34,831 nt of DNA, from positions 1 through 34,831 of the forward strand of contig WELA01002449.1 of assembly GCA_009602735.1 (NCBI GenBank). The letters run 5' to 3'. Source of the DNA: Mesotaenium endlicherianum (Eukaryota). Made by a program: the position numbers and the translations under genes. Below are positions 177-32,714 of this stretch, piece by piece; the stretch's first letter is position 1, and every line of letters begins with the position of its first letter. The notes beneath the pieces are model-generated. The model did not search any database and was not told the origin of the DNA. It saw nothing but the letters and a program-made list of their open reading frames with translations.

Positions 177-2042
177 GTCACATACTTTTATCCACAAGGA
201 CTTAGTTAAGCGGCTAAGGCTGCCTACTGTCACCCAAGGGAATAGAAAAATATTCCTTGGAGATGCCTCAAGTATCCCGAGAGGAATTATAACCAAGCCT
301 ATTGAGGTCCAGTTAGATTCTGGCATTGCAATTCTAACTGAAGCGCTTACATTTGAGGTACTCAACACTGGCTTTTATGATCTCGTGCTAGGCAGGTCCT
401 GGCTTAATAGACATCAAGCTGAAGTGTGTTGGAGCAGAGGTACAGTTAAAGTGAGAGGAGCCAGTGATGGGCAGACTGACTTGGCACCCAGCAGTGCTCT
501 TCCTCTTGTCCTGTGTGGATAGCAAATGAAGGAAAAGAGGAGGCTTCCAGAAGGATGCAAGTTGCTGAATGCAATGGAGTTCGTCAAAAGCTGGAACCAG
601 AAGGAAGACAGAATGTTCTGTCTGCTGCTAAGAGAGGTACCTCCTCAACCTGAAGAAGTGGTGGAGAAAAAGGTAAGCTCTCCGGAGCACCCTACTGCTG
701 CGAAAATTGTTGCTCAGTACACGGGTGTATTTAATATGCCTCCAGGATTACCCCCTAAGCGGGAAGTAGATCATAGGATTGATTTATTACCTGGTAGTCA
801 GCCACCCTGGCAACGCACTTATGGCTTGTCTTATGTGGAGAGCGAGGAGTTGAAAACATAGATTGCAGAGCTTGAGGAGAATGGTTATATTTCTCCCAGT
901 AAATCACCTTACGGCGCACCCATCCTATTTGTTATGAAAAAGGATGGCAGTATGCGGATGTGTGTGGATTACAGAGCTCTGAACAGATTTACGGTAAAGA
1001 ACAAGTATGCCTTACCCAGAATCGAGGACTTGCTTGAGACCCTGTCTTGTGCTAAGGTATTAAGTATGATAGATCTCAAGAGTGGTTTTCATCAAATCAG
1101 AATTGCTGAGGGGGATGAACACAAGACTGCTTTCCGCACACGTTATGGACACTATGAGTTCAACGTGATGCCATTTGGACTGACTAATGCTCCTACTACC
1201 TTCATGGGTGCTATGAATGACATTTTCAAAACTTATTTGGATAAGTTTGTGCAAGTTTTCCTGGATGATGTTTTAATTTTCTCTAAAGATGAAGCTCAGC
1301 ACATTGAACACTTAAAGACTGTCCTGGACACTCTGAGGAAAAATCACTTATATGCGAAAATGAGCAAGTGTGATTTCTTCAAGGAAAGTATTGAATTCTT
1401 CGGCCACGTTGTCAGTAAAGAGGGCATTAGTGGGGATCCTAAGAAAGTCGAGACCATAAGGGACTGACCAGTACCACAGTCTGTCTCTGAAGTTAGATCC
1501 TTCCTCGGGTTGGCTAACTACTATAGGAGATTTATTGAGAATTATTCCACAAAGGCCAGTAAACTGACTGACCTTACTAAGAAAGACATAGGGTGTGTGT
1601 GGGGGAAAGAGCAGCAGGCTGCCTTCCAAACCCTTAAAGAGGCCCTTTGTTCTGCCCCAGTGCTAGCTGTGTATGACCCCAGCAAACCCGTGCAGGTGGT
1701 CACTGATGCCTCTGACTTTGCCATGGGTGCTATTTTGTTGCAGCCTGCTGACAAGACCACAAAGGATGGTAAGGTACGGCAGGAGTGGCACCCAGTGTTG
1801 TACGAGTCTATGAAATTTAATCCAGCAGAGATTAATTACTCAGTGCATGATAAGCAGCTGCTAGCTATCATTCATGTGCTCAAACAGTGGAGAGCATACT
1901 TACATGGTAAAGCCTTTAAGGTGATTACAGATCATCTAGCTCTGACCCACTTTCAGAAGAAGTCCAAGCTGTCGAGGAGGGAGAACCGCTGGAGCCAGAT
2001 GCTGGAGCAGTTCCAAGTCCAGATCGACTACAAACCAGGGAA
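177..2042 (+). pseudogene. pol: pol fragment (protease C-terminal part, RT, RNase H) of A1
   Basis: RT motifs [22 protein letters not shown] and RNase H motif TDASD. Premature stops at 520-522, 859-861 and 1465-1467, where the intact copy has TGG/CAG/TGG. Confidence 0.93.
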
Positions 2043-2043
2043 G

Positions 2044-3697
2044 ATGACTCAAAAGTCGGAACTCAAGAGGAAGAGAAGGGCGGAAGAGGCACATGCAGAA
2101 TACTTGCAATTCCGTGGAGACATCGAATCATCCTCCATCTCCGCTCGGGAATCACAACGACTCCAACAACAGCGGGAGGCACAGACGAAGAAGGAGGAGG
2201 AGGAACAGGTCAGACTGAGGCAGGAAGAAATGGACAGAAAAGCTGCAGAGGAGGCCAAGAAAGCAGAGGAGGAGAGGCAAGCTGAGGAGAGGCGGAAGCA
2301 GCAGGCTGAAGAAGAAGAACAGAGGAGAATCAGCAGCTACCGCTACACAATGCTGGGCAAGGGCTTTGATCTACTGGAGGAGGCCTTCAAGTATGCCCAG
2401 AGAAGTCGCAGTGAGTCGCAGAAGGAAATCCTCCAGAGGGAAGGGGAGACATCCGAAAACTTTGACAAGTATATAGAGGTCAGCACGGGGCTCCTCTTCT
2501 ACCACGATTACGCCAGGATGGTAGGATATACGGTCAGAGAGGCGAAAGCAATGGCCCAGGTGAACGCAGCAGGGGCTGTCTTGATTCCTGGTATCTGGGG
2601 GGAAGATAGGGTCATCAGGATGCTCCCCATGGATGCGGACAGCTTTAAGGACTCAACACCCCATAACAGGTTCAATGTATAATGAGGTGGAGAGAAGGAG
2701 CTGGGAATTCTTGGCCAGGGAAACCAGTCAGCTAGACTTTGCAGGGCACTGGTACCCTCGTACTCTTAAAAGGACAGACCCTGCCTTCTTCCAAAAGCCC
2801 ACTAATTGGCGGTGGATGACCATCAACATGAGGGACCAGCAGAATGACAGGGCGACGGATGAGGATTTCCTGACAGACCTAAAGGGGAACATAGTATTGC
2901 CCCCTCATATTGCGGCTTGGGACCCAAGATTGGATGGAGTCAGAGACTGCATGAGCCATGAGATGCAGGGGGACAGAAGCAGGGCCCGAGAGTCATTCTC
3001 AAAAGGGAAGCACGCTTATGCCAAATGGGCAAGCAAGCAGGGGGAAAAGGACCTCTATGCGGTCCGGACTCAGCAGCCCCCACCAGCACCCAAAAGGGGA
3101 AGGTCAGTAGGATATTCTTTTTCTCGGGAAGAGCTGGAGCAGCTGACAGAAGAGACCCCAGAAGTCTCAAAGGAACCCGGGGACGGAGAGGAGGAGGAGT
3201 CAGATGAAGACCAGGAGGAAGGCGAGGAGGAGGACACTAGCCCCGCCGTGATCCTGACACCTGCCACATCCCCTGTAAGGGAGAAGACGGGGTTGGCCCT
3301 GTAGCAACTCGCTGAAGAGGAGGATATCACTTGGCTGGGAACTGCCAGAGGACAGAGCCCATCTGCAGGCACGGAGACCTAGTCGGACAGGGCAGACAGA
3401 ATGGCTGCTCGGGAGATAGCCAGAGGCCTGCCAGCATCTTCCTTGCAGAGAGGGCATGTACCCTTGGCTCATGTCATGCAACATCCTTCTGGGATGCTGG
3501 TATACGTACCTATCAGTTTGAGGGCTGCCTAGGAGAAGGCTGCCTCCCTTCAGTTTCATACTGTGCAAGAGGAAACAGCCAAGTTACTGCGCTCTCCGCG
3601 GGGCCCCTACGCAGATCCCCCAGGCTTCAGGAGACCCCAAGACAGGAGAAGGTCTGGCTCCCCTGAGTATAGGGCCTCAGGGACATCTCCCTCCTAA
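2044..3697 (+). pseudogene. ORF3 type beta (accessory protein of unknown function), disrupted
   Basis: Starts [10 protein letters not shown], near-identical to 8163-9827 and homologous to 20904-22580 ([15 protein letters not shown], LPPHIAxWDPRL, FSKGKHA). Has a 5-bp deletion near 2677 relative to A2 and several C>T stops. Confidence 0.88.
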
Positions 3698-7407: not shown

Positions 7408-7431
7408 CTTCTTGTGCTACCAAAGTGCCTA

Positions 7432-7443
7432 GCTCCGATACTA
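7432..7443 (-). other. Primer-binding site of C1 (tRNA-iMet type, TGG mutated to TAG)
   Basis: Minus strand TAGTATCGGAGC, 1 nt after the LTR end. Confidence 0.8.
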
Positions 7444-7444
7444 C

Positions 7445-7946: not shown

Positions 7947-8162
7947 CTCGGGATCAGCCAGAAAATTTCTGATCACCATATTACACACTCAAGCTGCGCT
8001 CACACTCACTTTCTCTCTAACTCAATTCACCCTTATATTCACTCACACCAGGTATTTCACACTAGGAGCCCCTCCCCCTATCGCATTTTTCTTCATCAAG
8101 GGCACTCGATGGCGGCAACATATCATGACTTCACTAACTGCATTGTGTTATGATTGAGCAGG

Positions 8163-9827
8163 ATGACTCAAAAGTCGGAACTTAAGAGGAAGAGAAGAGC
8201 GGAAGAGGCACATGCAGAATACTTGCAATACCGTGGCGACATCGAATCATCCTCCATCTCCGCTCGGGAATCACAACGTCTCCAACAACAGCGGGAGGCA
8301 CTGAAGAAAAAGGAGGAGGAGGAACAGGCCAGACTGAGGCAGGAAGAAATGGACATAAAAGCTGCAGAGGAGGCCAAGAAAGCAGAGGAGGAGAGGCAAG
8401 CCGAGGAGAGGTGGAAGCAGCAGGCTGAAGAAGAGCAGAGGAGGATCAGCAGCTACCGCTACACAGTGCTGGGAAAGGGCTTTGATCTATTGGAGGAGGC
8501 CTTCAAGTATGCTCAGAGAAGTTGCAGTGAGTCACGGAAGGACATCCTACAGAGGGAAGGGGAGACATCCGAAAACTTTGACAAGTATATAGAGGTCAGC
8601 ACAGGGCTCCTCCTCTACCACAATTACGCCAGGATGGTAGGATATACGGTCAGAGAGGCCAAGGCAATGGCCCAGGTGAACGAAGCAGGGGCTGTATCAA
8701 TTTCGGGTATCTGGGGGAAAGAGAGGGTCATCAGGATGATCCCCATGGACGCGGACAACTTTAAGGACTCTACATCCCATAACAGGTTCAAGGCCATGTA
8801 TAATGAGGTGGAGAGAAGGAGCTGGGAATTCTTGGCCAGGGAAACCAATCAGCTGGACTTTGCAGGGCATTGGTACCCTTGTACTCTGAAAAGGACAGAC
8901 CTTGCCTTCTTCTAGAAGCCCACCGATTGGCGGTGGATGACCATCAACATGAGGGACCAGCAGAATGACAAGGCGACGGATGAGAATTTCCTAACAGACC
9001 TAAAGGGGAACATAGCATTGCCCCCTCACATTGCGGCTTGGAACCCAAGATTGGATGGAGTAAGAGACTACATGAGCCAAAAAATGCAAGAGGACAGGAG
9101 CAGGGCCTGAGAGTCATTCTCTAAAGGGAAGCTTGCTTATGCCAAATGGGCAAGCAAGCAGGGGGAAAAGGACCTAGATACGGTCCGGACTCAGCAGTCC
9201 CCACCAGCACCCAAAAGGGGAAGGTCAGTGGGATATTCTTTTTCTCGGGAAGAGCTGGAGCAGTTGACAGAGGAGACCCCAGCAGTCTCAAAGGAACCAG
9301 GGGACGGAGAGGAGGAGGGGTCAGAGGAAGAAGAGGAGGAAGGCGAGGAGGAGGACACTAGCCCTGCCGTGATCCTGACATCTGCCACATCCCCTGTAAG
9401 GGAGAAGACTGGGTTGGCCCTGCAGCAGCTCGCTGAAGAGGAAGATATCACTTGGCTGGGAATTGCCAGAGGACAGAGCCCATCCCCAGGCACGGAGACT
9501 CAGTCAGACAGGGCAGACAGGAGGGCTGCTAGAGAAATAGCTAGAGGCCTGCCGGCATCTCCCTCGCAGAGAGGGCATGTACCCTTAGCTCATGTCATGC
9601 ACTATCCTTCTGGGATGCCGGTATATGTACCAGTCAGTTTGAGGGCTGCCCAGGAGAAGGCTGCCTCCATTCAGTTTCAGACCGTGCAGGAGGAAAGATC
9701 ACAGTTACTGCGTTCTCCGCAGGGTCCCTACACGGAGCCCCCCTCTCTGACAGGCTTCAGAAGACCCCAAGACAGGAGGAGGTCTGACTCCCCTGACCAT
9801 AGGGCTCCAGGGGCATCTCCCACCTAA
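8163..9827 (+). pseudogene. ORF3 type beta (554 codons, in-frame stops at 8913 and 9108)
   Basis: Single reading frame from ATG 8163 to TAA 9827 with two stops (TAG, TGA) where A1 has CAA/CGA; homologous to the intact ORF3. Confidence 0.88.
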
Positions 9828-10655: not shown

Positions 10656-12590
10656 GATGCCATTGTTGCTAGCTGCCAATGCCGAAGCCTCTTCACATAG
10701 AAGTTGCAGCATGCTGAAGGTTGTGGACGACGTGGTGCACTTGGACCATGTCGAGGTTAACCTGTCGTCAATGCATACTTGGAAGCTTAACTTAGTAAAT
10801 CATGTGTGCACGCACTGTCTCAATTGCTCAATACTTGCAGCCATACCCAAGCTCCCTCATTCTAGCTACCACACATATAGTGAGAGAGGTACGTCTCTTG
10901 CAAAGCAACAAGCTTAAACTCAAAGGTATAGCACAACAGACTAACAAGTCCTCTAGCACCGCTGGAGTGCACACCCCTCTCTATACTAGCCGTGGATTGC
11001 ATATAACAACACACAACAACTATGATCAAGTGGGATAAATGAGTCATATCCAACTTGCTATGATGCAACTCCCTTGAGGCTGCCCTTGATGCTTGCAGAC
11101 ACCTCTTCCATCAAGCCTCCACTTTAGGCTTCTTGTTGCGTGGATCTGTACACAAGAGGCTAGGAAAGTCACGTTAGTATGCCGCATAGTACATTGAGCC
11201 TAGAGACACACTAGGTGAGCAAGTGGAAGGATCCTGGACAGGACGTGCAATGCCCTACATCATACACTTCCCAAGCTCCACCTAGACTCATCATACCACA
11301 CAAGTAAACCTCACACACTTACCTCATGAGTCAAAGAAGACGAGCACGGACATTCAAAAAAGGACTTAGCTCCGATACCACTGAAATGAATCTTGCTTAT
11401 TCAAGATTAATATACTTCATTTAAATATATAAGATCAAAGATAGGTGGAAGTGTGTGAAATCAGGGAGCGGTCTTTGCTCTTACAAGAATTTTGTTTACT
11501 CACCTATAACCCTTGATTCACTTACCGTAGTATGCCATAGCTGCACACTAGTACAAGGCATAAGAAAGAGGCGAGCTTGAGAACTAGAGCTTCTCCTCTA
11601 GAAACTCATGACCTCTAGCCTACCAGGCATATAAGCATGTGTAAGCACATACACAACATTAAGGGACTAGATAGCAAAGGCGCTCTCGTTCAGATGACCA
11701 TAAAGTAGCTAAAACACATCCCATTGACTTGGGTGCAAAACCATAGAATCTGTTCGCTGTGTGACCCCAAAATGTCAGAAGACATAACTATGTTTATAAG
11801 ACTCCAAATTGAGCAAACTTAACAACAACAAATGCATCTTGACGAGACCTTTCCGAAAAGTCTTAGTTTGCTCCATTTGGAGCGCAGATGAAGCAGCCAT
11901 GTCAGTTTTCGTGAAGGCTGGTCATTAGAACAAACACAAAAAGTGCACACATGACTTGCAAGTAGAAATCCGACTGTAAAGCCTACTGTCCAGAATGAGG
12001 GACCACGAGATCCCAGCCTGCTATGTACCTAGTGACCACCTGGTTGACCACAGCGCAAGCTGCGCCATTTCGTGGAAAACCCGTTAAGTTGGGACCCACG
12101 GATCTAGGTATAACGACCATATTAATTGGTCGGTTGACTGAAGCCCTAACTTTTCAATCGACTGACGACGGCTCCGCCTACCCAGGAGTTGACCACACTG
12201 GTAGGACATTGGTTTATCGAATCTCAGTCGACCTCCCGACTTTCAATATACTACGGTCACATGTGCCAATCTACAAATAATAATTCTAAATGAATATATC
12301 TATCCTCAGCGTACTTAAGCTAAGTATGCTCACTAATATCAAGCGAGCTTACTATATGTCAACCTACTCATATTACAGCCTATATAAAACTGATATATAA
12401 ATCTTAGCAAACTACACTATGATACAAAAGTCATCTTGCTGACCTTTTTGACAATGTAAGTAAATTCGCATTACATCGACAAACATTCAATTAGATGAAC
12501 TCGCACATGTGAGTATATTGACATAATATTTATTTATTGTTGTATTTATACATGCAATTAATTAAATAAATGATGAACTGATTCATTACA
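10656..12590 (-). mobile_element. Family-D LTR element, 5' end (1209-bp LTR, PBS, apparently non-coding internal region), interrupted by A2
   Basis: The minus strand reads TGTAATGAATCAGT (12590) ... GATTCATTTCA (11382), then G, then PBS TGGTATCGGAGC (11380-11369). No gag-like ORF in 10656-11368. Confidence 0.82.
11382..12590 (-). repeat. Family-D 5' LTR (1209 bp) with family-A termini
   Basis: TG...CA ends identical to family A over 14 and 11 bp; adjacent PBS. Confidence 0.83.
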
Positions 12591-14206
12591 ACGAACCTGG
12601 CTGTCCCCCTCTCAAGACTGCAATTAAATGCAGTGATGACATCCCTGAGTACAGATGTGGAAGCTCAATTTTCTGCCGCCTTTGATGCGGACCCTTATTA
12701 CACGAATGGCGAGGCAGCCCTTGACCCACACAAGAAGCAAGAAGAAAACTATTGGGTGAGACAAGACACGGGACAAAGATGCGTGCCTAACAATCAAGAG
12801 CTACAACTCTTGTTACTTCGAGAAGCACACGACAACCTACTTGGAGGTCACTTTGGAATATTAAAGACCACGGGCGTGCTCTCGAGGACTTTTTGCTGGC
12901 CAGGAATGTCTAAGCAAGTGAAGGAAACCTGCAGGAACTGCGACGCATGCCAAATAATGAAACCATCATCACAAAAGGCGGGAGGACTTCTTCAACCACT
13001 ACCAATTCCCAAGAGACAATGAATAGACATCTCCATGGACCTCATCGTGGACTTGCCAGTGACACCACGCGACTACAATGCAATATTAACAGTGGTGGAC
13101 AGACTTACAAAGATGGCTCATTTCATCCCAACAACAACCAAGGTTACAGCACCCCTGTTAGCAAGACTCATCTTTGACAATATATTTTGATTACATGGCC
13201 TACCATCAAGAATAGTGTCTGATCGCGACCCGAGATTCACAAGCCATTTCTGGACATATCTCTTCAAGAACTTGGGTACATTGATATGTCCACTGCTTAC
13301 CACCCGCAATCAGATGAATAAAAAAAGCACATGAGTCGTACTCTCAAGACCTCTCTAAAGGCCTGCGTGTCTATTCTGGAGCAAGACTAGGACATGTACT
13401 TGATTCCCTTGGAGTTTGCCTACAACAATACGACGCAGGCCTTTACCCAAGAGTCCCCATTCTTCCTCAACTATGGCTTCCATCTGACCACGCCGCTGAG
13501 CTTCACGGCTGGCCATGATGAAATACTTGCAGCGGCAGATTTTTTGGAGACATTATAAAAAGTCCTTGCAGCAGCCACAAAAGTTCTACAACACGCGCAA
13601 GATGCTCAAGCAAAAATTGCAAACACGGCTAGAAGAGAAATTACATACAAAGTGGGCGACGTAGTGTTTCTATCATCCAAGAACATTTTTCTTAACAACA
13701 GGCCTGCCGGCAGCAAGTTCTCTCCCAAATATTTGGGACCCTTCAAGATTATCCAGCAAGTCAACCCCGTTCCTTTTAAGCTAGAACTTCCCCAGACTAT
13801 GCACCTCGACCCCGTATTCCACGCTTCCCTCTTCAAGCCGTATGTGCAACCCGACAACAAGTTCCCAGGACGAGTGAGAACCCCACCAGCCCCAACAATA
13901 GTGGATGATCATATATAGTACAAAGTGGAAGACATAGTGGCTATGAGAAATTTCAGGAGACAACAGCAATACTTGATCAAGTGGAAAGGATATCCAGGTT
14001 CGGAGAGTAGTTGGGTGGCGGCGCACTACCTTGACAAAATTCAGAGAAAGCTGAAACGCTTCCATGCCGCCAACCTCCATCATGGGCCAACTTCAAGTCT
14101 CTCTACTAGAAGCCCAAAGGCTTTAGAGAGGCAGCCTACCACTATCAAGAAGCAGCAAAATACTCCTTGGAGGCAGCCTGCAAGAACCACAAAGAGGAAA
14201 AAATGA
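12591..14206 (+). pseudogene. pol: Integrase + chromodomain of C2, degenerate
   Basis: HHCC zinc finger (HDNLLGGHFG...CDAC), [29 protein letters not shown] and chromodomain YKVEDIV...YLIKWKGYPGSESSW; multiple stops and frameshifts. Confidence 0.9.
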
Positions 14207-14592
14207 CATTAGACACTTTTTTCTTCTCGCAATTTCTGGACAAAAATAAACTGCTACTGTTGATAAGTCTCTTCATATTAAATCTTGAAATTTTACTTAG
14301 CTGTAGTCCATGAGTAGCCGGTCATTTAGAATCCAAGTTTGCTCATTTTGGAACATTGGTGAGCGAGATATGATGCTCTGAGTAGAAGGGGGTCAAGCTG
14401 CTGGCATTATAAGGGCAGAATATGCCTTTTGACATTGTGCCCTCCCTTGAACTTGGAATGCTTTGAAACTCAAGACTATGGTAGAACATTTTACAATGCC
14501 CATTTAGAGACTTACTTTGCGAAATTTGGAGATGTATAGAAGGACTTATGATTTTCAGAAGTTTCTGCGCAGATTTGGAGGAGTGCCTACTC

Positions 14593-15338
14593 TGTAATGA
14601 ATCAGTATATTAGTAGATATAATATTCATTTAAATATAATAGTTAATTAAGTTCAGCCTGCCGAACTTTAGTTAATAGTCAGCCTGCTGGACTTTACTTA
14701 ATAGTCAGTCTGCTGGACTTTACATAATTATCAGTTTGCTGACTCAGTCGAAAGCAGCAGGCTGAAAGTCCATATAAGTCAGCTTGCTGACACATTCTTT
14801 GACAGCAAGCTGACTCCCGTACTCGGTAGCAGCGAACTGCCTTGATATGCATCTAAGTGCGATATGCTAGATGAATAGCCAGATGACATCCCTATGATGG
14901 ATGGCTATTCGGGATGATGGGAGATGGCGGTGGATTTGGTTAACCGAGGTCCTACCAACGTGGTTAACTCCCGGGTAGGCGGTGCCATCGCACTGACCGT
15001 TGAACAGTAAACTCATTCCATGTACATATGCTAGGCATTGCTCTCGAGTTCGGCATTCGGAAACGAGGCCAACTCTCTTGTACAGCTTACTGAGAGAGAT
15101 CTGAATCCAAGGCGAGAAGCCATTGATACGCACTGTCTTCTAACCTTGCTTATGTATGAGTTTACTGATTTGCATCATTGATGCTAGTTTACTCGCATTT
15201 GACTTACGAGTATTATTCCCTGCTAGTGTATTGTCCTTTGCCGTTTAACTAGTTAACGAAAATACCATAAAGATTACTTGCTGATATAAAGATCTTTATT
15301 AATTGTTAATCGCCTATTTTGTGAGACGATTCATTTCA
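14593..15338 (+). repeat. 5' LTR of A3 (746 bp)
   Basis: TGTAATG...CATTTCA followed by the PBS; has one more 26-bp repeat unit than the 3' LTR. Confidence 0.96.
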
Positions 15339-15339
15339 G

Positions 15340-15351
15340 TGGTATCGGAGC
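15340..15351 (+). other. Primer-binding site (tRNA-iMet type)
   Basis: TGGTATCGGAGC, one mismatch to the usual plant TGGTATCAGAGC. Confidence 0.88.
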
Positions 15352-15372
15352 AGTTATCACAGTCTTCTCTGT

Positions 15373-16851
15373 ATGGTAAGGACAAGGTCTCAAACTAGCA
15401 ACTCCCGAGACATGGAGAACCAGGATAACGAGAATGTCGAAAACCAGGCGGAAAGCCATGTAGCGGGAAACCGTACCTATTCGGAAGCAGTAGCGGATAC
15501 TGCAGCTAGGGAGGCTGCAGATGAGGCAGCTGCTATTGCCTCAGTCGCAGCTCAGCAAGCTGAGGAGGAGATAGCCAGACTAGAAGCTGAACAAGTAGCA
15601 AAGGCCGCTGAAGATATACAAAGGAGGGAAGGACAGCCAGCTGACGAGCGCACTGTTGAAGAACTTATGGCATCAAGGGCCAATGTTCTGAACCCACCTC
15701 CTGCCGTACAACTCAATGTACCCCTAGGTCAAATACGTGACCGGCTGAATGCGGCAGGAATTGCTGCTGCAGGAGCAAGAGGGATTGTTGAGGACACTAC
15801 TCAGCGAGTAGATGCCAATGCTGCTGCTGCATTTGCTAATCTACCACCCCAAAATGTAGACTTGGGAGCATTGTTCGTTCAGATGCAGTCGCAAATGGCG
15901 ACCATGTATCAGTCCCAGCAGGAGGACAAAAGAATCATAATGTCCCTACTCCGGGACAGAGACCAACTGGGGTCTCACACCACTAGTGGTGGTGGCCGAG
16001 GGCCTAGTAAGCCCAAGCCGAAACCTCCCCAGGACTATGATCCTGAGGGAAACAGAAAATATTACCTGATCAAGTTTCTCGCGGATGTTGAGCAGTGGCT
16101 GGAGAACTACCCAGAACTGCAAGATTACGAGAAGGTCAGGCACACCGGTGCGCTACTGAAAGGCAGTGCCGCAGACTGGTGGCTTTACTGGAAGGAAGAG
16201 CGTAAGGCTCGGCAACTCGGTGACCCTACGTGGGTAGAGTTTGTCGAGAAGTTGCATGAGAAGTTTGATGTCATCAACCAGCAGGAGAAAGCTATCTATG
16301 CGATGATCTCCCTGACACTGAAGCAGACCACTTCAGTTGCTGAGTTTGCTCAAAAGTTCCAAGAGAACATGATGAAGCAGCCTGATTTGCCAGAACGGTA
16401 TAGGATAGCATACTTCAGGTATGGCTTGAAATCCGAGGTCTCTGGTCATTTTGCTGAGAAAAAGTATGAGAAACTGGCTGACTTGATCCAGGATGCTGAC
16501 GCCTGGGATCAGCAGCAGTTCAATCACAAGCGCCAGAGTAACGCTTTGGTGTCTAAGATTGTCAAAAAGCCCCACGGTTCCTACAATGCAGTTGAAGGAG
16601 ACCAGGCTGAGGATAATCAGGGTGATGAATATGAGTATGAGTACAATGCTATTCAGTCTAGAGGTAGAGGTGGTCCCTCTCGAGGTGGCTATGGAAGGGG
16701 TGGTGGTAGGACTAAGCCGAGACCAGCCTCAGCAAAATCTACTTGCTACCATTGTCAGCAGAAAGGCCACTACAGAGAACAGTGTCCGGTCAAGCACCTG
16801 CCTAAGGTCGAGAGAAAAGACCAGCCTTTAAAAGACAGCAACAGTCAGTAA
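15373..16851 (+). CDS. gag: Gag (492 aa) with CCHC zinc knuckle
   Basis: [10 protein letters not shown] and [10 protein letters not shown] capsid-like motifs, RGG-rich tract, [14 protein letters not shown]. Confidence 0.95.
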
Positions 16852-16868
16852 TCCAGTCTACTGACTGT
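16827..16868 (+). promoter_or_regulatory. Predicted -1 programmed ribosomal frameshift signal
   Basis: T TTA AAA heptamer in the gag frame (16827-16833), 7-nt spacer, perfect 10-bp stem ACAGTCAGTA/TACTGACTGT. pol is in the -1 frame and is open from 16806. Confidence 0.8.
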
Positions 16869-19800
16869 GAGGATGCTAGAGATAGTGAGTCGTCACTAGC
16901 TGCCCTCGTAGCAGGTATTATGGGTCCTGCTGAACTGGATTCACTATGCATGCCTGACAAACAGATAAAGGAGACCATCAGTAATATAGACGTCCAGAGA
17001 GTGCACACTCTGGATGCTCTTGTTCCACCTGATGTCCAACATTTCTTTGCTACGTCAGGAGAACAATGCGAAAGTCAGGAAAAGACAGTCCCCCCTATCC
17101 TACTGCATTGCATGATTGCAGGTAGGAAGGTGAGGGCATTTGTTGACGGAGGGGCGTCACATACTTTTATTCACAAGGACTTAGTTAAGCGGCTAAGGCT
17201 GCCTACTGTCACCCAAGGGAATAGAAAAATATTCCTTGGAGATGCCTCAAGTATCCCGGGAGGAGTTATAACCAAGCCTATTGAGGTCCAGTTAGGTTCT
17301 GGCATTGCAGTTCTAACTGAAACGCTTACATTTGAGGTACTCAACACTGGCTTTTATGATCTCGTGCTAGGCAGGTCCTGGCTTAATAGACATCAAGCTG
17401 AAGTGTGTTGGAGCAGAGGTACAGTTAAAGTGAGAGGAGCCAGTGATGGGCAGACTGACTTGGCACCCACCAGTGCTCTTCCTCTTGTCCTGTGTGGATG
17501 GCAAATGAAGGAAAAGAAGAGGCTTCCAGAAGGATGCAAGTTGCTGAATGCAATGGAGTTCGTCAAAAGCTGGAACCAGAAGGAAGACAGAATGTTCTGT
17601 CTGCTGCTAAGAGAGGTACCTCCTCAACCTGAAGAAGTGGTTGAGAAAAAGGTAAGCCCTCCGGAGCACCCTACTGCTGCAAAAATTGTTGCTCAGTACA
17701 CTGATGTGTTTAACATGCCTCCAGGACTACCCCCTAAAAGGGAAGTAGATCATAGGATTGATCTATTACCTGGTAGCCAGCCACCCTGGCAACGCACTTA
17801 TGGCTTGTCTTATTTGGAGAGCGAGGAGTTGAAAACACAGATTGCAGAGCTGGAGGAAAATGGTTACATTTCTCCCAGTAAATCACCGTACGGCGCACCT
17901 ATCCTATTTGTTAAGAAAAAGGATGGCAGTATGCGGATGTGTGTGGATTACAGAGCCCTGAACAGAATTACAGTAAAGAACAAGTATGCTTTACCCAGAA
18001 TCGAGGACTTGCTTGATACCCTGTCTGGCGCTAAGGTGTTCAGTAAGATAGATCTCAAGAGTGGTTATCATCAAATCAGAATTGCTGAGGGGGATGAACA
18101 CAAGACTGCTTTCCGCACACGTTATGGACACTATGAGTTCAACGTGATGCCATTTGGACTGACTAATGCTCCTGCTACCTTTATGGGTGCTATGAATGAC
18201 ATTTTCAGACCTTATTTGGATAAGTTTGTGCAAGTTTTCCTGGATGATATTTTAATTTTCTCTAAAGATGAAGCTCAGCACACTGAACACTTAAAGAAAG
18301 TGCTGGACACTCTGCGGAAAAATCACTTGTATGCTAAAATGAGCAAGTGTGATTTCTTTAAGGAAAGTATTGAATTCTTAGGCCACGTTGTCAGTAAAGA
18401 GGGCATCAGTGTGGATCCTAAGAAAGTCCAGACCATAAGGGACTGGCCAGTACCACAGTCTGTCTCTGAAGTTAGATCCTTCCTCGGGTTGGCTAACTAC
18501 TATAGGAGATTTATTGAGAATTATTCCACAAAGGCCAGTAAACTGACTGACCTTACTAAGAAAGACATCGGGTATGTGTGGGGGGAAGAGCAGCAGGCTG
18601 CCTTCCAGACCCTTAAAGATGCCCTTTGTTCTGCCCCAGTGCTAGCCGTGTATGACCCCAGCAAACCGGTGCAGGTGGTTACTGATGCCTCTGATTTTGC
18701 CATGGGTGCTATTTTGTTGCAGCCTGCTGACAAAACCACAAAGGATGGTAAGGTACGGCAGGAGTGGCATCCTGTGTTGTATGAGTCTATGAAATTTAAT
18801 CCAGCGGAGATTAATTACTCAGTGCATGATAAAGAGCTGCTAGCTATCATTCATGTACTCAAACAGTGGAGAGCATACTTACATGGTAAAGCTTTTAAGG
18901 TGATTACAGATCATCTAGCTCTGACCCACTTTCAGAAGAAGTCCAAGCTGTCGAGGAGGGAGAACCGCTGGAGCCAGATGCTGGAGCAGTTCCAAGTCCA
19001 GATCGACTACAAACCAGGGAAGTTGAATCCTGCTGATGCACTCTCTAGAAGACCTGACTTGCAAGAAAGGAACTTTAGTCAGCATGCTGTAGATAAAGTC
19101 CTGTGTGCACTCACTTCACTAAAGGTGAAAAAGTCCTTCCTTGAACAACTTAGGAAAGCCTACCTTTCTGACCCAACATTTGAGCCCAGCCCCACTACTG
19201 GTGTGTGTCGTGCTACTGCACTCGGGTATAAGCTCAAGGGAGGGGTCTGGGTGACTGAAACCACTTCAGGCAGGCTGAAGCTGGTCATTCCTAATAACTT
19301 GGAAATAAGGTCTCTCTTACTGAGTCAAGCTCATGACAGTCTCCTGGGTGGACATTTGGGGCAGGCCAAAACTGTTGGCAAACTGGCAAAACATTATCAT
19401 TGGGAGGGGTTACCCCGGGAGGTCTTGAAATATGTCAAGTCCTGTGACCAGTGTCAGAGAAATAAGTCTCGGCACACACCACCCGGAGGTCTCTTGCAAC
19501 CGCTGCCCATCCCAGCTGGACGCTGGGAAACTATATCCATGGACTGGGTGGTCTCACTACCAAGAACTGCCAACGGGCATGATTCAATACTGGTAGTCGT
19601 GGATAAACTGACAAAAATGGTCATTTTTATCCCCACAACTGTCAAAGTGACTGCACTCGAAACAGCGAGACAGTTTTACAACCATGTAGTATGCCAACAT
19701 GGGCTCCCTTCTAATATCATCTCAGACAGAGACTCAAAATTCACCTCTAAGTTCTGGAGAGCTTTAATGGGGTTAATGGGAGTCAAACAGCTGCTCAGCA

Positions 19801-20636
19801 CAGCAAACCACCCTCAGACTGATGGGCAGACTGAAAGAACTAACCGAGTTCTGCAGGAGGTGCTGAGAGCATATATTAACCAAAAACAAGATAATTGGGA
19901 TGACCTGTTGCCTCAAATTCAGTTTGCGGTCAACAGTGCGGTGCACGCGTCAACGGGCAAGACTCCTTTTGAACTCAGCCTGGGTAGAGTCCCTAAGTCT
20001 CCTTTAGATGTGCTAGGGGAATCTTTAACTCACCCTGAAGGGATTGACAACCCGGTCTCCCTCCAGTTAACTCAGGAGTTTGCTGACACCCTGTCAGAAG
20101 TCCAACGAAACTTGCACACGGCCCAAGAAAACCAACAAAAATACGCTAATCAACACCGTCGGGAACTGACATTTTCCAAGGGGGATTTAGTCAAACTGCA
20201 TTCTCAGCACCTGTACCTCCCTGGTGTGGTCAAGAAAAAGCTTGGCCCTGTCTGGGTCGGTCCATATTCGGTGGTCCGTCGTGTCGGTCAGAATGCTTAC
20301 AAACTGAGCATGTCAGCTGAATACAAGGGGCACCCGGTCTTTAATGTCTCCTTCCTGGAACCGTACATCAAAGGTGATACACTGTTCACAGGTCGGTTCC
20401 CTGTCCAACCGGGACCGGTCCCCGCTGTCCGAGACGGTGACCCTGAGGAATATGAGGTCGATGAGATTTTAGACGCTCGCTCGGTCCGTCGATCGTCTAA
20501 ATATGTCATGAAATACCTCATTCGATGGAAAGGTTACGATGCCTCGGGGGACACTTGGGAGTTGAAGGACCACTTGACCAATGCCAAAGGGGCGTTGACA
20601 CGGTTCCACCTCCGGGCCGCTGGAGTCCCTCCATAA
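16827..20636 (+). CDS. pol: Pol polyprotein: protease, RT, RNase H, integrase, chromodomain (probably made as Gag-Pol by -1 frameshift; first in-frame ATG 16920)
   Basis: FVDGGAS, FLDD, TDASD, HHCC, D-D-E (ISMDW, SDRD, GQTER), VGPY and chromodomain EYEVDEIL...[15 protein letters not shown]; Ty3/gypsy domain order. Confidence 0.97.
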
Positions 20637-20903
20637 CTGTCATTTCAGTTGACACGGGAAGGTGACAGGCGGTCCTGTCTCCATTTAAGTTGGAGGGGAA
20701 AATATATGACAGTTAGTGAGCGAGAGCGATAAAAACACACTCATACGTTTATGTGTAGCGCATCGCAACTACGTCAACTTTTAGCAATCATCCTGTAAGG
20801 TAAACAGCAGCGAAGCCACTATACTAAATACTAACATACTTCCTGCAATCCCTATGACAAAGGTCCATATCCTACTAACTTGTGCCCTGGTTACATGTGC
20901 AGG

Positions 20904-22580
20904 ATGGCGCCCACCACACAAAAGGAGGACAGAAAGCGCAAGGCAGAAGAAGCCAGGAGGACAATGGAGCAATACCAGAAGGAGCTGGCGGCGACGTCCC
21001 TCACCAGGAGAGAACAAGAAAGGGTCCGCAAACAACAAGAGGCGGCAGAAGAGGCACAGAGGAAGAAGGATCAGGAAGCGGAAAACCTCAGGAAGGCTGA
21101 GGAGGAGAGACAGAAGAAACAGCAAGAAGAAGCGGCAGCGGCAGAAGAGGAGAAAAGAAAAAAGATTGAAGCGGACAGACAGAAGAGCTTGGCCACTTAC
21201 AGGTATACTGTGGTGGGTGGCCAAAACTTCGATAACCTGAAGGAAGCATTGCTGGCAGCCCAGGAGATCAACAGGCTGGAACAGACAACACTGCTACAGA
21301 AGGAAGGAGCTACAGCACTGGACAGGTACATCGAGACACACACCGGCGTGGTCCTTTACGAAGATTATGCTAAGATGGTGGGCTATACAGCAGAGCAGGC
21401 CCGGTATCTCGCAGATGATTCAGAGGACAAGCCGGTCCCCATACCGGGAATAGTGGGAGATCAGAGACTCATCCGGATGGTGAGCATGCGGCCCGATAGC
21501 TTTAAGGATACGGTATTCTACCTCACACTCCTGCCAGCTTACAATGAAGTTGAGAGAAGGAGCTGGGAGTACTTGGCCAGGGAAGCAGGACAGCAGATGT
21601 TCTCTCCCCACTGGTTCCCGTGTAAACTGAGGAAGGCTGAGCACGGACCCCAGTACTACCAGCAGCCAACAGACTGGAGGTGGATGACCGTCACAAATAA
21701 GAAGCAGGAGTGTGACCGAGCCCAACCGGATGACTTCCACTATGGCCTAGACGGCTATCTCATCCTACCACCTCACATTGCCCCTTGGGACCCCAGGCTG
21801 AATGGATGCCTGAGCAATATGAATGCAGAGACCAAGGAACATAGGAGGAGGGGAAGAGACTACTTCTCTAAGGGAAAGCATGCCTTTGTCAAATGGGCAA
21901 AGAATGCAGGCCGGATAGATATCAGTAGGCTGAAGGCCAAGCAACCTCCAGCGCGCCCTAAGAAAGGGAGGTCGGTAGACTACTCCATGTCTACTAGGGA
22001 GCAGGACGACTTAGTGGACGAGACCCCTACTCTCTCCGAGGAGGAGGATGAGGAGGATGAGGAAGAAGAACAAGGCAGAGGAGAAGCATCAGCAGCAGGT
22101 ACTCAGGATACCCAGGGACAGGCAGTGGCACTTCCTAAAGAACCACGATCAGGTGTGTGGAATGTGATCCCCGTTATGGCGACAACTGGACCCCGCGCTC
22201 GCTCCCCCAGCCCACCTGCCCAAGCAGGGGAAGAAGCTGATCTGACTGTACTGGGCAGCAGACACAGACAGAAATCCCCAGAGGACAGGGGTGCCAGAAG
22301 AGGGACACGCGGGTGGGCCAGAGGTATGCCAGCCTCCCCCTCCGCTCAGGGGCATGTACCTCTAGCCAATGTATTTCAGCATCCTACTGGAATGCCTGTC
22401 TATGTGGGAATCAACACCCAAATAGTTGAAGAGCAGGCCACCATCCTCCGTTCTCCTCGAGGGCCAACTTTAGAGCAAACAGGGTTCTTTAGAAGGCCAG
22501 CTGACAGACCTAGAGGGCTGTCCAGATCTAGGTCCAGATCTCCGTCCCCTGATCCTGAAGCCCCAGGAACCACCCCTTAA
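20904..22580 (+). CDS. ORF3 type alpha, 558-aa accessory protein of unknown function
   Basis: Long uninterrupted ORF between pol and the 3' LTR, with protein-level conservation to the diverged ORF3 beta. Start placed at ATG 20904 by equivalence to ATG 8163. Confidence 0.9.
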   Translation: MAPTTQKEDRKRKAEEARRTMEQYQKELAATSLTRREQERVRKQQEAAEEAQRKKDQEAENLRKAEEERQKKQQEEAAAAEEEKRKKIEADRQKSLATYRYTVVGGQNFDNLKEALLAAQEINRLEQTTLLQKEGATALDRYIETHTGVVLYEDYAKMVGYTAEQARYLADDSEDKPVPIPGIVGDQRLIRMVSMRPDSFKDTVFYLTLLPAYNEVERRSWEYLAREAGQQMFSPHWFPCKLRKAEHGPQYYQQPTDWRWMTVTNKKQECDRAQPDDFHYGLDGYLILPPHIAPWDPRLNGCLSNMNAETKEHRRRGRDYFSKGKHAFVKWAKNAGRIDISRLKAKQPPARPKKGRSVDYSMSTREQDDLVDETPTLSEEEDEEDEEEEQGRGEASAAGTQDTQGQAVALPKEPRSGVWNVIPVMATTGPRARSPSPPAQAGEEADLTVLGSRHRQKSPEDRGARRGTRGWARGMPASPSAQGHVPLANVFQHPTGMPVYVGINTQIVEEQATILRSPRGPTLEQTGFFRRPADRPRGLSRSRSRSPSPDPEAPGTTP

Positions 22581-22657
22581 GGTGACAGGCTGAAAAGATA
22601 GTCAGTAAGGGAGGCTGGTCAGGGTCAGTTTCTTTATTTAAAGCTTTTGCAGTTTAA

Positions 22658-22692
22658 TGTTGTCGAGGCGACAACAAGTTAAGTTGGAGGGA
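22658..22692 (+). other. Pre-PPT hairpin and polypurine tract of A3
   Basis: TGTTGTCG-AGG-CGACAACA, then AAGTTGGAGGGA next to the LTR. The hairpin is identical in A1 (3747-3765) and A2 (9911-9929). Confidence 0.85.
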
Positions 22693-22693
22693 T

Positions 22694-23413
22694 TGTAATG
22701 AATCAGTATATTAGTGGATATAATATTCATTTAAATATAATAGTTAATTAAGTTCAGCCTGCTGAACTTTAGTTAATAATCAGTCTGCTGGACTTTACAT
22801 AATTATCAGTTTAATGACTCGGCCAAAAGCAGCAGGCTGAAGTCAACTTAAGTCAGCTTGCTGACACATTCTTTGACAGCCAGCTGACTTCCGTACTCGG
22901 TAGCAGCGAACTGCCTTGATATGCATCTAAGTGCGATATGCTAGATGAATAGCCAGATGACATCCCTATGATGGATGGCTATTCGGGATGATGGGAGATG
23001 GCGGTGGATTTGGTTAACCGAGGTCCTACCAACGTGGTTAACTCCCGGGTAGGCGGTGCCATCGCACTGACCGTTGAACAGTAAACTCATTCCATGTACA
23101 TACGCTAGGCATTGCTCTCGAGTTCGGCATTCGAAAACGAGGCCAACTCTCTTGTACAGCTTACTGAGAGAGATCTGAATCCAAGGCGAGAAGCCATTGA
23201 TACGCACTGTCTTCTAACCTTGCTTATGTATGAGTTTACTGATTTGCATTATTGATGCTAGTTTACTCTCATTTGACTGACGAGTTTTATTCCCTGCTAG
23301 TGTATTGTCCTTTGCCGTTTAACTAGTTAACGGAAATACCATAAAAGATTACTTGCTGATATAAAGATCTTTATTAATTGTTAATCGCCTATTTGGTAAG
23401 ACGATTCATTTCA
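22694..23413 (+). repeat. 3' LTR of A3 (720 bp)
   Basis: Direct repeat of 14593-15338, followed by TSD TACTC. Confidence 0.96.
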
Positions 23414-23684
23414 TACTCTCTCAGCTCTCAACGACATTCTAGAAATTAAAATGCTCTCAAATTTGGTGACCCGGTATAGATCTTCGACGCGCTCCGTTTG
23501 GCAATAGAATTTTCCAATTTAGAGCGGGTTTGTAGACGCCATGAATTTTTGAATTTGTGGCAGATTCTGGGCCAACTTGTACAATTTTGTTTATCATCAA
23601 GGAGTAGGCTAGCCAATAAGGTCACACCACCCACGACCTTGCCTAGTCTACCTTACATGTGTAGCACTTGACTTGAACCTGTTG

Positions 23685-24187
23685 TGTAGTGAAACAGATA
23701 GATAAAGTACTTAGTAAAATATAATACTTAATCTATTCAAGACAAGGATCTTTGAACACAAGTGGTAGCTTCTTGAAAAAAAGATTGCTTCTTGAAATTT
23801 AATATATTTCTGGAAGTTGGCAAGTACAAGAGTGATTCTAGAACGTTTTTCCATGTTCTAGCTCTTGTTTGTATACTTGCTACATAAGTAATTACTAGGA
23901 AGGTGCATGTTGATGTGTTGGCATCCAACACACCCCAGAACTTGCCACCTCTTTCTAGAATAATGTACACCTGTCCTTTTGACCTAAAAATTGCACATTT
24001 GACTTTTGCCACATGGAGTTCTTTTAGGTCCTTCCTTTAACGTTGAAAATGCCTTAGAATGTTCAAAGGACACGAACCAAGTCACTAGAGTATCTATTCA
24101 CACTTGACTCCACACAATATTACTCCAAATATATTCAAAAATATTAAGATATATGCATACTAATATATTATAACTCAAATCACTACA
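23685..24187 (-). mobile_element. Family-C solo LTR (503 bp)
   Basis: TGTAGTG...CACTACA, flanked by TSD TGTTG (23680-23684 / 24188-24192), same orientation as 7445-7946. Confidence 0.93.
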
Positions 24188-24263: not shown

Positions 24264-24764
24264 TGTAGTAATTTGAGTTTTATTATATTAGTTTGCATAT
24301 ATTTAATGCTTTTGAATATACTCAAAGTAGTATTGTATGGATTCAAGTGTGAATAGATACTCTAGTAACTTGGTTCATGTCCTTTGAACCTTCTATGGCA
24401 TTTTCGAAGTTAGAGGAAGGACCTAGAAGAACTCCATGTGGCAAAAGTCAAATGTGCCATTTTTAGGTCAAAAGGATATGTGTAAATTATTCTAGAAAGA
24501 CGTGGCAAGTTTTGGGATGTGTTGGGTGCCAACACATCAACATGCACCTTCCTAGAAATTACTTATACAGCAAGTGCATAAACAAGAGCTAGAACGTAGA
24601 AAGGCATTCCAGAATCACTCTTGTACGTGCCAAATTCCAGAAATATATCAACTTTCCAGAAGTCATTTATCTTTCAAGAAGCTACCACTTTTGTTCAAAG
24701 ATCCTAGTCTTGAATAAATGAAGTATTTTACTTATTAAGGTCTTTATCTATCTGTTTCACTACA
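24264..24764 (+). repeat. Family-C 3' LTR of C2 (501 bp)
   Basis: Reverse-complement homolog of 7445-7946, preceded by PPT GGGGGAGTGA, ends CACTACA. Confidence 0.92.
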
Positions 24765-28702: not shown

Positions 28703-29041
28703 ATGGCTCAGGCTGTCCTCGCTACGAATGCTGTGTCTCAAGGATTTATTGCCACCATTCATGCTGCTCAGTCCGTAGCATGCACAGCTAATCTTCCTTA
28801 TCTACCAGCCCTCCAAACTCGTTTCAGGACGGGAGGCAAGCTCAAACTGGTAGCACATAGATCTGTGACCGTTTCACGAAACGCCAGGTCGGCACGTATG
28901 TCCTCTGAACTAGTTGACTTCAACCAGCCGAAGGCAATTGAGAAGGATAATGTGCCAGCTGCCACTTCAGAGTGGTTGTCAGCGGAAGATGCCCTCCTCT
29001 CCTTCGCTGCAGCTCTGACTCCGTTTCTTCTTGATGTTGAG
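28703..29041 (+). CDS. DUF4079-family plastid membrane protein, exon 1 (transit-peptide-like)
   Basis: ATG GCT start, Ala/Ser/Arg-rich N-terminus, ends LTPFLLDVE|GTGAGC donor, phase 0. Confidence 0.75.
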
Positions 29042-30007
29042 GTGAGCACACTGAGCAGAAATGTGATGTTTAGATCATAAGTCTAGGCATATCCAGAAGA
29101 AACGAGCTAGTTCCTACTTGAACAAAGATATTGCAGGTTTCATCTGCATCTTGTTGGGGAAGATGCATCTGCTGATAACTAACAGTACTGTAAAGGAAGA
29201 AGACGCTATCACAGATTCACTGGACTAGCTCAAGCAACATCGACTGTAATGTGGAACTATTGCATGGATGCATGTGATCTCATTGTTGATGTGCTACCAG
29301 CCTGAGCCACATTATTTTTAGTGAGTCACGATTATTGCATTGGCTTAAGCACTGCGTGCCACTTTGAAATATTATCTCATTGTGCTCCTTTCTCATGAGG
29401 ATCCGCCCTATTATATATACACTGGGGGTGATGCATTGCCGTTCAACAGCCCAAATATAGAAACTTGGCCTTGGTCCTGTAAAGCAACAGCATAAATCAT
29501 GTTGCTTTGGACGCCCTGAGATTCGTGGAGTGCTCTTTAGCCGTGCATCTTTGGGCGGACCGTCAAAATTTGTGCACATTATGAAGGATGTAATGGCACA
29601 CCTTGAGGAGTTGCACCTGCAGGAAAAAAAGCATGACATTATCTGAATTCAGAGTACAGGGCATGCTATTTCACATTGAGCTGCCAAATGGCATCCAGCC
29701 CGATTCCAGCCATCTGCATTTTTGAACATTTAAGGAATCTGCTGGGATGCAGGACGCTGCAAGAGAGGGCAAGAATTGTTGGCGAGAATTGTTGGGATGC
29801 TTACCTTTCCTGTGACAGCTTCTATGAGATTGAAGGATTCAGGCAACAGCGGGGTGTAATTATTTGCTTTGTGCAAGAAAATAGTAGAGATAGGGGCAGA
29901 GCCTGAGCACCTGTGACAAAAGCCTGATGACTGCACACGATCTGGCAAAACTGCGCTGCTCATTTGCTTCAACCTGACTGGCTGATTGACTAACTGGCTA
30001 GCTGAAT

Positions 30008-30072
30008 GACTGACTGACTGACTGGAAGCCTCATGCCTGTGTGTGATTGATGTGTGTGTGTGTGTGTGTGTG
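30008..30072. repeat. Intronic microsatellites (GACT)n and (TG)n
   Basis: GACT x4 at 30008-30023 and a TG run at 30051-30072, just upstream of the exon-2 acceptor. Confidence 0.85.
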
Positions 30073-30086
30073 TTTTCACATGGCAG

Positions 30087-30329
30087 TCTGCACATGCTGT
30101 AGGGGGAGAGCTGGGACTGCTGGAGGGCAAGAGCGTGGCCCTCATCCACCCCGCTGCCATGCTCACGCTGGCAGCTGTGAGCGGCTACACGGCCTACCTG
30201 GGCTTCCGGTGGAGGCGCACGAGGACCATCCCCGATGAGATCAACGCACTGAAGAAGCAGCTGCCTGCTGTCGCGACCGAGGGTGCCCCGCCCAGTGAGA
30301 CCGAGCTGGCCATCAAGGCGCTCACCGAG
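30087..30329 (+). CDS. DUF4079-family protein, exon 2
   Basis: GGCAG acceptor; SAHAVGGELGLLEGKSVALIHP...YLGFRWRRTRTI; GAG|GTGGGC donor. Confidence 0.9.
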
Positions 30330-31027
30330 GTGGGCTGAGTGCACACACTCATCAATCTCCCCAGCCTCTACCTTGGGGAAGAAGGGGAGGTCAGAGGCCA
30401 GAGGTTTCAGTTCACAAATAGGCAAAATCTCAGAAAGGGAACATGTCTTGAAGGCTGTTCGGGAGGCACGGTTGGGAACTATCTGCATGAGCCACATTGC
30501 AGGAATTCTACCAATTTTGGAGCTTGTCTAGCTTTGCATACAGCTTATGTATGCACCTCGTTCATTGGGCTGCCCCTTTCACAGGCACACACAAACACAC
30601 ACACATACGCAAACCACACACCTTTTCCTGCCAGCCTGCCTGTATCATCTCCAGCCGACCAGAACCTGTAGCTCTAGGGCTGTCCGACGTTCTAGGGAAG
30701 AATCAGGGTCACTCCAGGAGCTGTGTTTGGGGGGGGGGGGAGGGGGGAGGCATGTCAAGCTCACCTTGTGTACTCCTGCCAGAAGTTATTTCATACTAAG
30801 CACTTATTCTACCCTGCAACTCCATAATTTTGCTTCGCATCTTCCAAGAAGTTTCCATGGAGGGAAGGCAGTGGAACCCCCTTGACCACTGGCAACTTTT
30901 CCCTCCCTATCTCTCCCTCTCTCTCTACATGAGCGTGTGCGTGCCTCACCGTGTGGGGGCCCTCTTCAAATCTCTCTCTCTCTCCCCACTCCTGCACTCT
31001 CCCGCCAACTGCGATATGACATGACAG

Positions 31028-31187
31028 GAGCGCAAGGACCTCGTGAAGCAGGGCTTCAGGGATCGCCACTTCAACATCGGCTCGGTGCTGCTTGGCTCCG
31101 GGGTCGTCTTCTCCATTGCCGGCGCCCTCAACACCTTCTGGCGCACTGGCAAGCTCTTCCCTGGCCCACACCTGTGGGCCGGAGCAG
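31028..31187 (+). CDS. DUF4079-family protein, exon 3
   Basis: GACAG acceptor; ERKDLVKQGFRDRHFNIGS...NTFWRTGKLFPGPHLWAGA; CAG|GTACCC donor, phase 1. Confidence 0.92.
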
Positions 31188-32362: not shown

Positions 32363-32521
32363 GATGGGGATGGGGATGGGGATGGTGATGGGGATGGCAT
32401 GGGGGCGTTTTTTCTGGTGGGGGGGGGGGGNNNNNNNNNNNNNNNNNNNNNNNNNNNNNNNNNNNNNNNNNNNNNNNNNNNNNNNNNNNNNNNNNNNNNN
32501 NNNNNNNGGGGGGGGGGGGGG
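32363..32521. other. (ATGGGG)n repeat, poly-G and assembly gap (N 32431-32507)
   Basis: Seen directly in the sequence. Confidence 0.9.
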
Positions 32522-32535
32522 AGGACTTTATGCAG

Positions 32536-32714
32536 GCATCACCGCTCTCTGGGCTGCAGCAGCTGCACTTGTGCCGGCCATGCAGAAGGGCGACGACACC
32601 GCCCGCAGCTTGCACATTGCGCTCAACGTCATCAACCTCGCCCTCTTCGTGTGGCAGATTCCCACCGGCTTGGAGATTGTCGCCAAGGTGTGGGAGTTTG
32701 CCCCATGGCCTTGA
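32536..32714 (+). CDS. DUF4079-family protein, exon 4 (spliced product 306 aa; resembles Arabidopsis At3g61870, from memory)
   Basis: TGCAG acceptor with matching phase; GITALWAAAAALVPAMQKG...ARSLHIALN...WQIPTG...WP stop. Confidence 0.92.

Follow-up and report, generated by a model that had tools for sequence, protein, structure and literature searches.

A chromovirus of Mesotaenium endlicherianum, a zygnematophyte from the algal sister group of land plants, carries a third open reading frame (ORF3) behind pol. What kind of gene is it, how is it expressed, and does it serve the element? These questions were addressed in a window of 34,831 nucleotides (assembly GCA_009602735.1, contig WELA01002449.1, positions 1 to 34,831, forward strand), the whole stretch of DNA that was analyzed. 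An earlier note had described ORF3 as a non-envelope accessory gene of an unrecognised family.

The element and its third gene

The complete LTR retrotransposon occupies positions 14593-23413 (8,821 bp, plus strand, as are all its features below) within a cluster of nested gypsy elements. It has the features of a Ty3/gypsy chromovirus: TG...CA LTRs, a 5-bp target-site duplication (14588..14592, second copy at 23414-23418), a primer-binding site, a polypurine tract (PPT), gag followed by PR-RT-RH-IN, and a chromodomain. The 5' LTR (14593..15338, 746 bp) contains a 26-bp internal duplication and is 96.8% identical to the 3' LTR (22694..23413, 720 bp, delimited by LTR comparison), with 23 differences among 718 aligned bases. 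The primer-binding site, located by sequence match at 15340..15351, is presumably of the initiator-Met type, matching 11 of 12 bases of the plant consensus. The gag gene (15373..16851, 492 aa) encodes a Ty3 capsid and a CCHC knuckle (ORF and Pfam), and the pol frame (16806..20636, first ATG at 16920) runs without stops through the PR-RT-RH-IN-chromodomain order identified by Pfam. A slippery heptamer inside the gag-pol overlap (16827..16833) predicts a -1 frameshift. The chromodomain lies at the integrase C-terminus (approximately 20451-20609; PF00385, E 6e-9), and by eye the aromatic cage positions Y, W, and Y are present. A quick RT-RH tree of 56 rows, built without REXdb references, with six short rows dropped and 30 unnamed matches kept, placed the element outside the seed-plant clade (SH-aLRT 100) and within no supported group. 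A polymorphic insertion with an empty site was also considered, as reads and a contig skip 14587-23414. This reading was rejected: against the flanks, the contig has 16 mismatches in 188 bases and 23 in 184, and so represents another copy of the flanking repeat.

ORF3 was confirmed as an intact sense frame of 558 aa at 20904..22580, open between the pol stop at 20636 and the 3' LTR at 22694; an in-frame ATG at 20895 would extend it to 561 aa. The protein begins with a charged coil (residues 1-95) including a basic patch at residues 10-13, followed by the core (96-375), an acidic tract, a second block (471-503), and an RS/SP tail. Homologues previously reported at 2044-3697 and 8163-9827 were found there and define a second type, B, distinct from type A of the intact element. 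The alignment contained the conserved motifs, acidic tract, second block, and S/P/R-rich tail listed before. Both types have retained the N-terminal basic patch (residues 8-13), the charged coil, the acidic tract, and a tail of the R-S-x-S-P type.

The earlier view that the protein does not resemble env, and has neither a signal peptide nor a transmembrane stretch, held up. By hydropathy, no membrane segment or hydrophobic signal stretch was found in type A or in type B copy B2, the highest 19-residue values being 0.73 and 0.75, respectively. No N-glycosylation sequon is present in type A, and none of the three ORF3 cysteines is common to all three copies. Judged by these protein features (no membrane segment, no sequon in type A), ORF3 is not an env protein. 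It could still take the place of env without a membrane anchor, as a particle-associated or cell-exit protein, in keeping with its env-like position, its long coil, the predicted env-like splicing, and the swappable cassette described below. This is very unlikely given the same lack of a hydrophobic segment, sequon, and common cysteine, and the N-terminal basic patch and RS tail point instead to the nucleus.

No homologue of ORF3 was detected in the sequence searches made, in agreement with its previous description as unrecognised. A word search with the core against 5.8 billion proteins, restricted to lengths of 306-977, gave 0 matches among 4,458 candidates. With phmmer, 1.84 billion representative sequences also yielded 0 matches, as did the exact look-up of four proteins. 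There were no PDB sequences at E<=10, the best PHROGs E value was 0.24, and phage tblastn gave no match. Of the pattern hits in metagenome contigs, 0 of 86 and 0 of 228 were homologues, as were 0 of 79 in viral contigs. Pfam yielded only sub-threshold matches, one over the coil to PF05262 (E 0.0075) and one to DUF6462 (E 0.18). The collections are poor in zygnematophyte repeats, and these blank results do not bear on other algae. AlphaFold models had pLDDT values of 35.2 and 34.9, too poor for a Foldseek comparison to mean anything. By sequence, ORF3 is an orphan in the collections searched.

A methyltransferase was also considered. The catalytic motif of DNA adenine methyltransferases has D, N, or S before a PPH-type motif. 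In ORF3, the conserved PPH is not preceded by any of these residues, and there was no supporting Pfam, PHROG, or PDB match, so this reading was rejected. Nor is ORF3 matched to the methyltransferase-bearing retrotransposons of a recent preprint (bioRxiv 10.64898/2026.05.21.726589).

ORF3 types, selection, and cassette exchange

Two type B copies are present in the window, both broken and both on the plus strand. In copy B1, a pol fragment (177..2042, PR-RT-RH, three stops, 95.9% identical to the intact element) is joined in frame to ORF3-B (2044..3697) exactly at the predicted splice acceptor; a 3' LTR is next at 3783-4503. ORF3 of B1 has suffered a 5-bp deletion, a 9-bp deletion, and three early stops. 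In copy B2, the type B spacer (7947..8162) contains a branch point at 8132-8138 and an acceptor AG at 8160-8161 and is followed by ORF3-B (8163..9827, two early stops) and a 3' LTR at 9947-10655. No intact pol precedes either copy within the window, as B1 follows the truncated pol and B2 another element's LTR. Contigs and reads from the sequencing runs join the end of pol (20535-20698) to the B spacer (7968-8225), with the joint at 20698-7968, which indicates that type B also occurs behind pol. In each of two runs, contigs of equal depth form a B-A-B patchwork, with patches that correspond to conserved protein blocks and end at the hairpin before the PPT; these sequences point to a third ORF3 type. 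Type A has broken copies as well: at 21068, an ORF3-A copy seen in contigs of runs X5 and X8 lacks one base.

Several neighbouring features belong to other insertions. Positions 1-176 form a precise LTR end abutting the B1 pol fragment, likely from a same-family element nested there. The 176/177 junction was considered as a splice and rejected, since it is not GT-AG; we read it as the nested LTR end. A decayed gypsy element is inserted in the B2 spacer (4504-7946, minus strand). Solo-like LTRs of its family are located at 23685-24187, with a 5-bp target-site duplication, and at 24264-24764, inverted.

ORF3 is under purifying selection, as the earlier note had supposed. Between B1 and B2, copies only 8% apart, dN/dS was 0.28 (bootstrap CI 0.19-0.38; 543 codons, dN 0.053, dS 0.194), although decay after insertion pushes this ratio toward 1. 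The differences were distributed 34/25/69 over the three codon positions (69 of 128 at the third). The pol fragment, taken as a control, gave a dN/dS of 0.20 (0.12-0.31). Types A and B2 share 46% amino acid identity over 516 codons, with pN 0.35 and pS 0.74 (synonymous sites saturated); pN/pS was below 1 in every region, and 313 of 686 differences were in the third position. ORF3 is not a chance open reading frame, because the differences concentrate at third codon positions. A passive role, as a captured host gene or nested fragment with no function for the element, would agree with the thin RNA evidence. We consider it highly improbable: selection acted between copies only 8% apart, ORF3 is intact in the copy with intact gag and pol, and a protein collection including Mesotaenium gene models yielded no host homologue.

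At least two deeply diverged ORF3 types thus occur on a near-identical pol/LTR backbone: nucleotide identity between A and B is 61% in ORF3 compared to 96% in pol and 90-94% in the LTRs (90-96% for the backbone overall). The left edge of the exchanged segment is an internal hairpin with a second PPT-like tract (20661..20699), and the right edge is a conserved 8-bp hairpin with the PPT (22658..22693). Contigs and reads of other types depart from the A sequence at 20698, after the first hairpin and PPT-like tract, and rejoin it at 22654-22658, at the hairpin before the true PPT; the spacer, ORF3, and the 3' UTR are therefore exchanged together. The simplest route for such a swap would be template switching between co-packaged RNAs. 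The duplicated hairpin-PPT may represent an older 3' end of the element, predating the gain of the cassette.

Predicted splicing and RNA reads

Both ORF3 starts with a native spacer have the same arrangement of YACTAAC, 21-22 nt, CAG, one G, and ATG. In type A, the branch point TACTAAC is at 20873..20879 and the acceptor AG at 20901-20902, one base before the ATG. Among 1,274 ATGs on both strands of the window, the pattern YACTAAC, 15-35 nt, YAG, one base, ATG occurred only at these two starts, and 16 and 22 of 200,000 shuffles matched it. The pattern was defined after it had been seen and the copies share ancestry, so it is evidence of conservation, not of independent occurrence. Apart from these signals, the alignment of the A and B spacers scores no higher than that of shuffled sequence (336 of 1,000 shuffles score as high).

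Two donors may serve this acceptor. The first lies near the LTR end, 18 nt before it and upstream of the primer-binding site, and reads G|GTAAGT in three further LTR copies (at 159, 4486, and 10638); in the 5' LTR of the intact copy, the predicted site (15321..15326) is weakened to T|GTGAGA. RNA reads over this donor had the consensus form in 18 of 18 cases in run X9, 43 of 43 in X12, and 24-25 of 25 in X15. The second is a candidate local donor at 20800..20805, which would give an intron of 103 nt; its weak B2 equivalent, from 8052, would give 110 nt. ORF3 is probably spliced from the donor at the 5' LTR end or from the local donor about 105 nt upstream to the AG before its ATG, which would bring the ATG near the front of the message. 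Splicing from the LTR donor would also remove the primer-binding site, and such RNA would consequently not be copied.

Copy B1 may preserve a trace of splicing. It joins pol codon 701 in frame to ORF3-B, and the stretch missing relative to the intact element and B2 begins with GT and ends at the predicted AG. All of the 1,992 right-end positions tested had some 6-of-8 partner in pol, and a random right end, as in a template switch, would hit the acceptor at about 1 in 1,992. On the other side, B1 has a weak donor, and six of the eight bases at this site agree with the ORF3 start, a similarity found at only 4 of 219 GT sites in pol. The sequence gives moderate support to a retro-copied spliced RNA; the junction also fits a template switch.

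Alternatively, ORF3 could be an independent cassette with its own promoter in the pol-ORF3 spacer and a short intron in its 5' UTR, an arrangement compatible with any function. Donor-like sites are present in both spacers (introns of 103 and 110 nt), and the spacer starts with the hairpin and PPT-like tract resembling an older 3' end. The weak local donor of B2, the strong consensus of the LTR donor in most copies, and the absence of reads beginning in the spacer in any numbers make this rather unlikely.

Eight sequencing runs were mapped, with orientation assigned by the general convention for stranded libraries. No spliced joint to 20903 was present among the three joints listed for four runs, and in a second set, the 15 joints listed (of 68) included none leading to 20903 or to 8162. 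Contigs cross the acceptors unspliced in X1 (20640-22115, type A) and X8 (7968-8225, type B). Depth over ORF3-A was zero in the stranded poly(A) runs X9 and X10 and 2.4x in sense in X15, in the first bin only; the unstranded runs X12 and X13 reached about 30x and 21x, respectively, over its 3' part. Over ORF3-B, positions 8421-8941 had 4.5x sense depth in X10 vs. 0.14x. Most reads are at most 95% alike to the window and therefore come from other copies or strains. ORF3 expression is low, and the read depth is too low to refute splicing.

Other features of the transcription of this region were observed as well. At 15053-15067, minus mates of five to seven molecules each start in X15 and X10, a possible poly(A) site and R/U5 border. 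Reads over the integrase end (19312-20846) are mainly antisense in X9, X15, and X10, and gag reads are mainly sense. One contig joins ORF3-B at 8225 to pol at 19396 on opposite strands, a possible source of dsRNA. An abundant joint connects 11436 to 15441, also on opposite strands. The related element at 10656-12593 (minus strand), with a 1.2-kb LTR (approximately 11383-12593), has LTR termini and a primer-binding site in common with the ORF3 family and by eye has no GT donor at the LTR end. An integrase-chromodomain fragment of another gypsy family with its flank (12589-14672) has a very high RNA depth, which in X10 reaches 200-330x on one strand between 13110 and 14672. Since 13523-14027 and 14180-14300 are missing from many reads, a heavily transcribed deleted derivative is suggested. 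The window also contains a host DUF4079 gene (28703-32714) of four exons, the last intron of which includes an N gap; over 81 aa, one of its exons shows 100% identity to a gene model of Mesotaenium endlicherianum, which places the window in this species.

Possible function and comparison with known systems

On the preferred reading, ORF3 is a selected non-envelope accessory gene that is probably translated from a spliced subgenomic message, and its product would probably regulate the RNA of the element itself, in the nucleus. As a whole, this sequence-based reading is plausible but somewhat short of probable. For its last part, the closest analogues are retroviral Rev and CERV of the Caenorhabditis elegans element Cer1, a spliced orphan of about 500 aa with a coiled segment and a basic NLS (PMC10309623). 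ORF3 is a candidate for working like them, as an orphan of about that size with a coil and a basic patch and with predicted splicing, and it has no detectable sequence homology to them. CERV differs in sharing exons with gag and in having a Cys-rich ring domain and a G-like domain, whereas ORF3 is a separate 3' cassette. In such a scheme, ORF3 would oligomerise through the coil and enter the nucleus via the basic patch; its RS/SP tail would engage the splicing and export machinery, letting unspliced genomic RNA out despite the perfect branch point. As its putative binding site, ORF3 would use the type-specific spacer that travels with it and forms part of the predicted intron. This reading is suggested because unspliced RNA must leave despite a perfect branch point, because the protein has NLS-like and RS-like parts, and because the spacer travels with ORF3. 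By analogy, we regard a Rev- or CERV-like nuclear regulator as possible, with the balance leaning against it. The wider proposal, an independent system in the style of complex retroviruses, with a spliced Rev-like regulator of a new protein family and its RNA target forming a swappable cassette of several ancient allelic types on one backbone, in a chromovirus of the algal sister group of land plants, seems quite unlikely.

ORF3 could instead counteract silencing or evade host restriction, like VANC, with an arms race against the host maintaining its types. The deep divergence of two to three types on a single backbone and the nuclear-looking signals in the protein would suit this role. The antisense reads over the integrase region suggest that the family is a silencing target, and VANDAL extra ORFs, named as anti-silencing factors, provide a precedent (PMC11728184). 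We nevertheless find it an unlikely role: Pfam gave no similarity to a known domain, the selection measured is purifying only, and the LTRs, an obvious target, are common to the types (90-94% identity), so that type-specific proteins are not obviously needed.

REM1 of Chlamydomonas is reportedly a green-algal gypsy element with a third ORF, antisense and encoding a PHD finger and a chromodomain. ORF3, in contrast, is in sense orientation and has no PHD or chromodomain Pfam match. The available part of one further source only cites REM1 (PMC6673714), and according to a figure legend in another, some chromoviruses carry an additional ORF whose function is unknown (PMC2864245). The statement of the earlier note that chromoviruses normally encode only gag-pol stands insofar as an extra 3' ORF is uncommon, but ORF3 is not unprecedented: the accessible text of the REXdb survey counts 782 Tekay elements, 18% of which have a 3' sense extra ORF, and lists no such ORF for Chlamyvir, Tcn1, Galadriel, Reina, or CRM (Neumann et al. 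2019, PMC6317226). Such ORFs (eORF-3'F) also occur in SIRE (74%), Athila, TatII, and Retand and were acquired many times (PMC6317226, same text). Like ORF3, these eORF-3'F are sense frames of more than 250 codons between pol and the 3' LTR, without a conserved domain and of unknown function, and Tekay elements are also chromoviruses. ORF3 is set apart from these ORFs, by description, in that its host is a zygnematophyte alga, its pol lies outside the seed-plant clade, and it has no Pfam match to the described eORF domains PF03078, PF04195, PF10536, and PF04094. It also differs from the algal and moss clades Chlamyvir and Tcn1, for which the accessible text lists no 3' sense extra ORF (PMC6317226).

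Sense 3' ORFs have been called env-like, and the message of the 3' ORF of barley Bagy2 is spliced; the functions are unknown (PMC7264820). The env-like ORFs of Bagy2 and Athila share with ORF3 the position, the orientation, and splicing (predicted, not observed, in ORF3), but ORF3 lacks a transmembrane segment and resides on a chromovirus rather than an Athila backbone. At the opposite end of the element, Tekay 5' additional ORFs (RIRE3, sunflower Tekay 13-2) have coils, disorder, proline-rich parts, and a predicted NLS (PMC11728184). By description, these and ORF3 are both chromovirus accessory proteins with coils, the Tekay ORFs being 5' of gag. Outside subscription journals, no literature on an ORF3 family was found. 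What is known, then, is that chromoviruses can have 3' extra ORFs; this protein is new.

What the extra ORFs of plant retrotransposons do is still an open question (PMC7264820; PMC6317226). To this question, the present case brings a copy that is intact, a measure of selection, a precise prediction of splicing, and natural cassette swaps. The conserved splice signals and the cassette swap, absent from the earlier note, combine env-like predicted expression with a non-env protein. With ORF3, the range of 3' accessory genes now includes an algal chromovirus lineage, whereas no such gene is listed for the algal and moss clades in the accessible text of the REXdb survey (PMC6317226). If the Rev-like reading is true, complex retroviruses and Cer1 would have a parallel in the green lineage.
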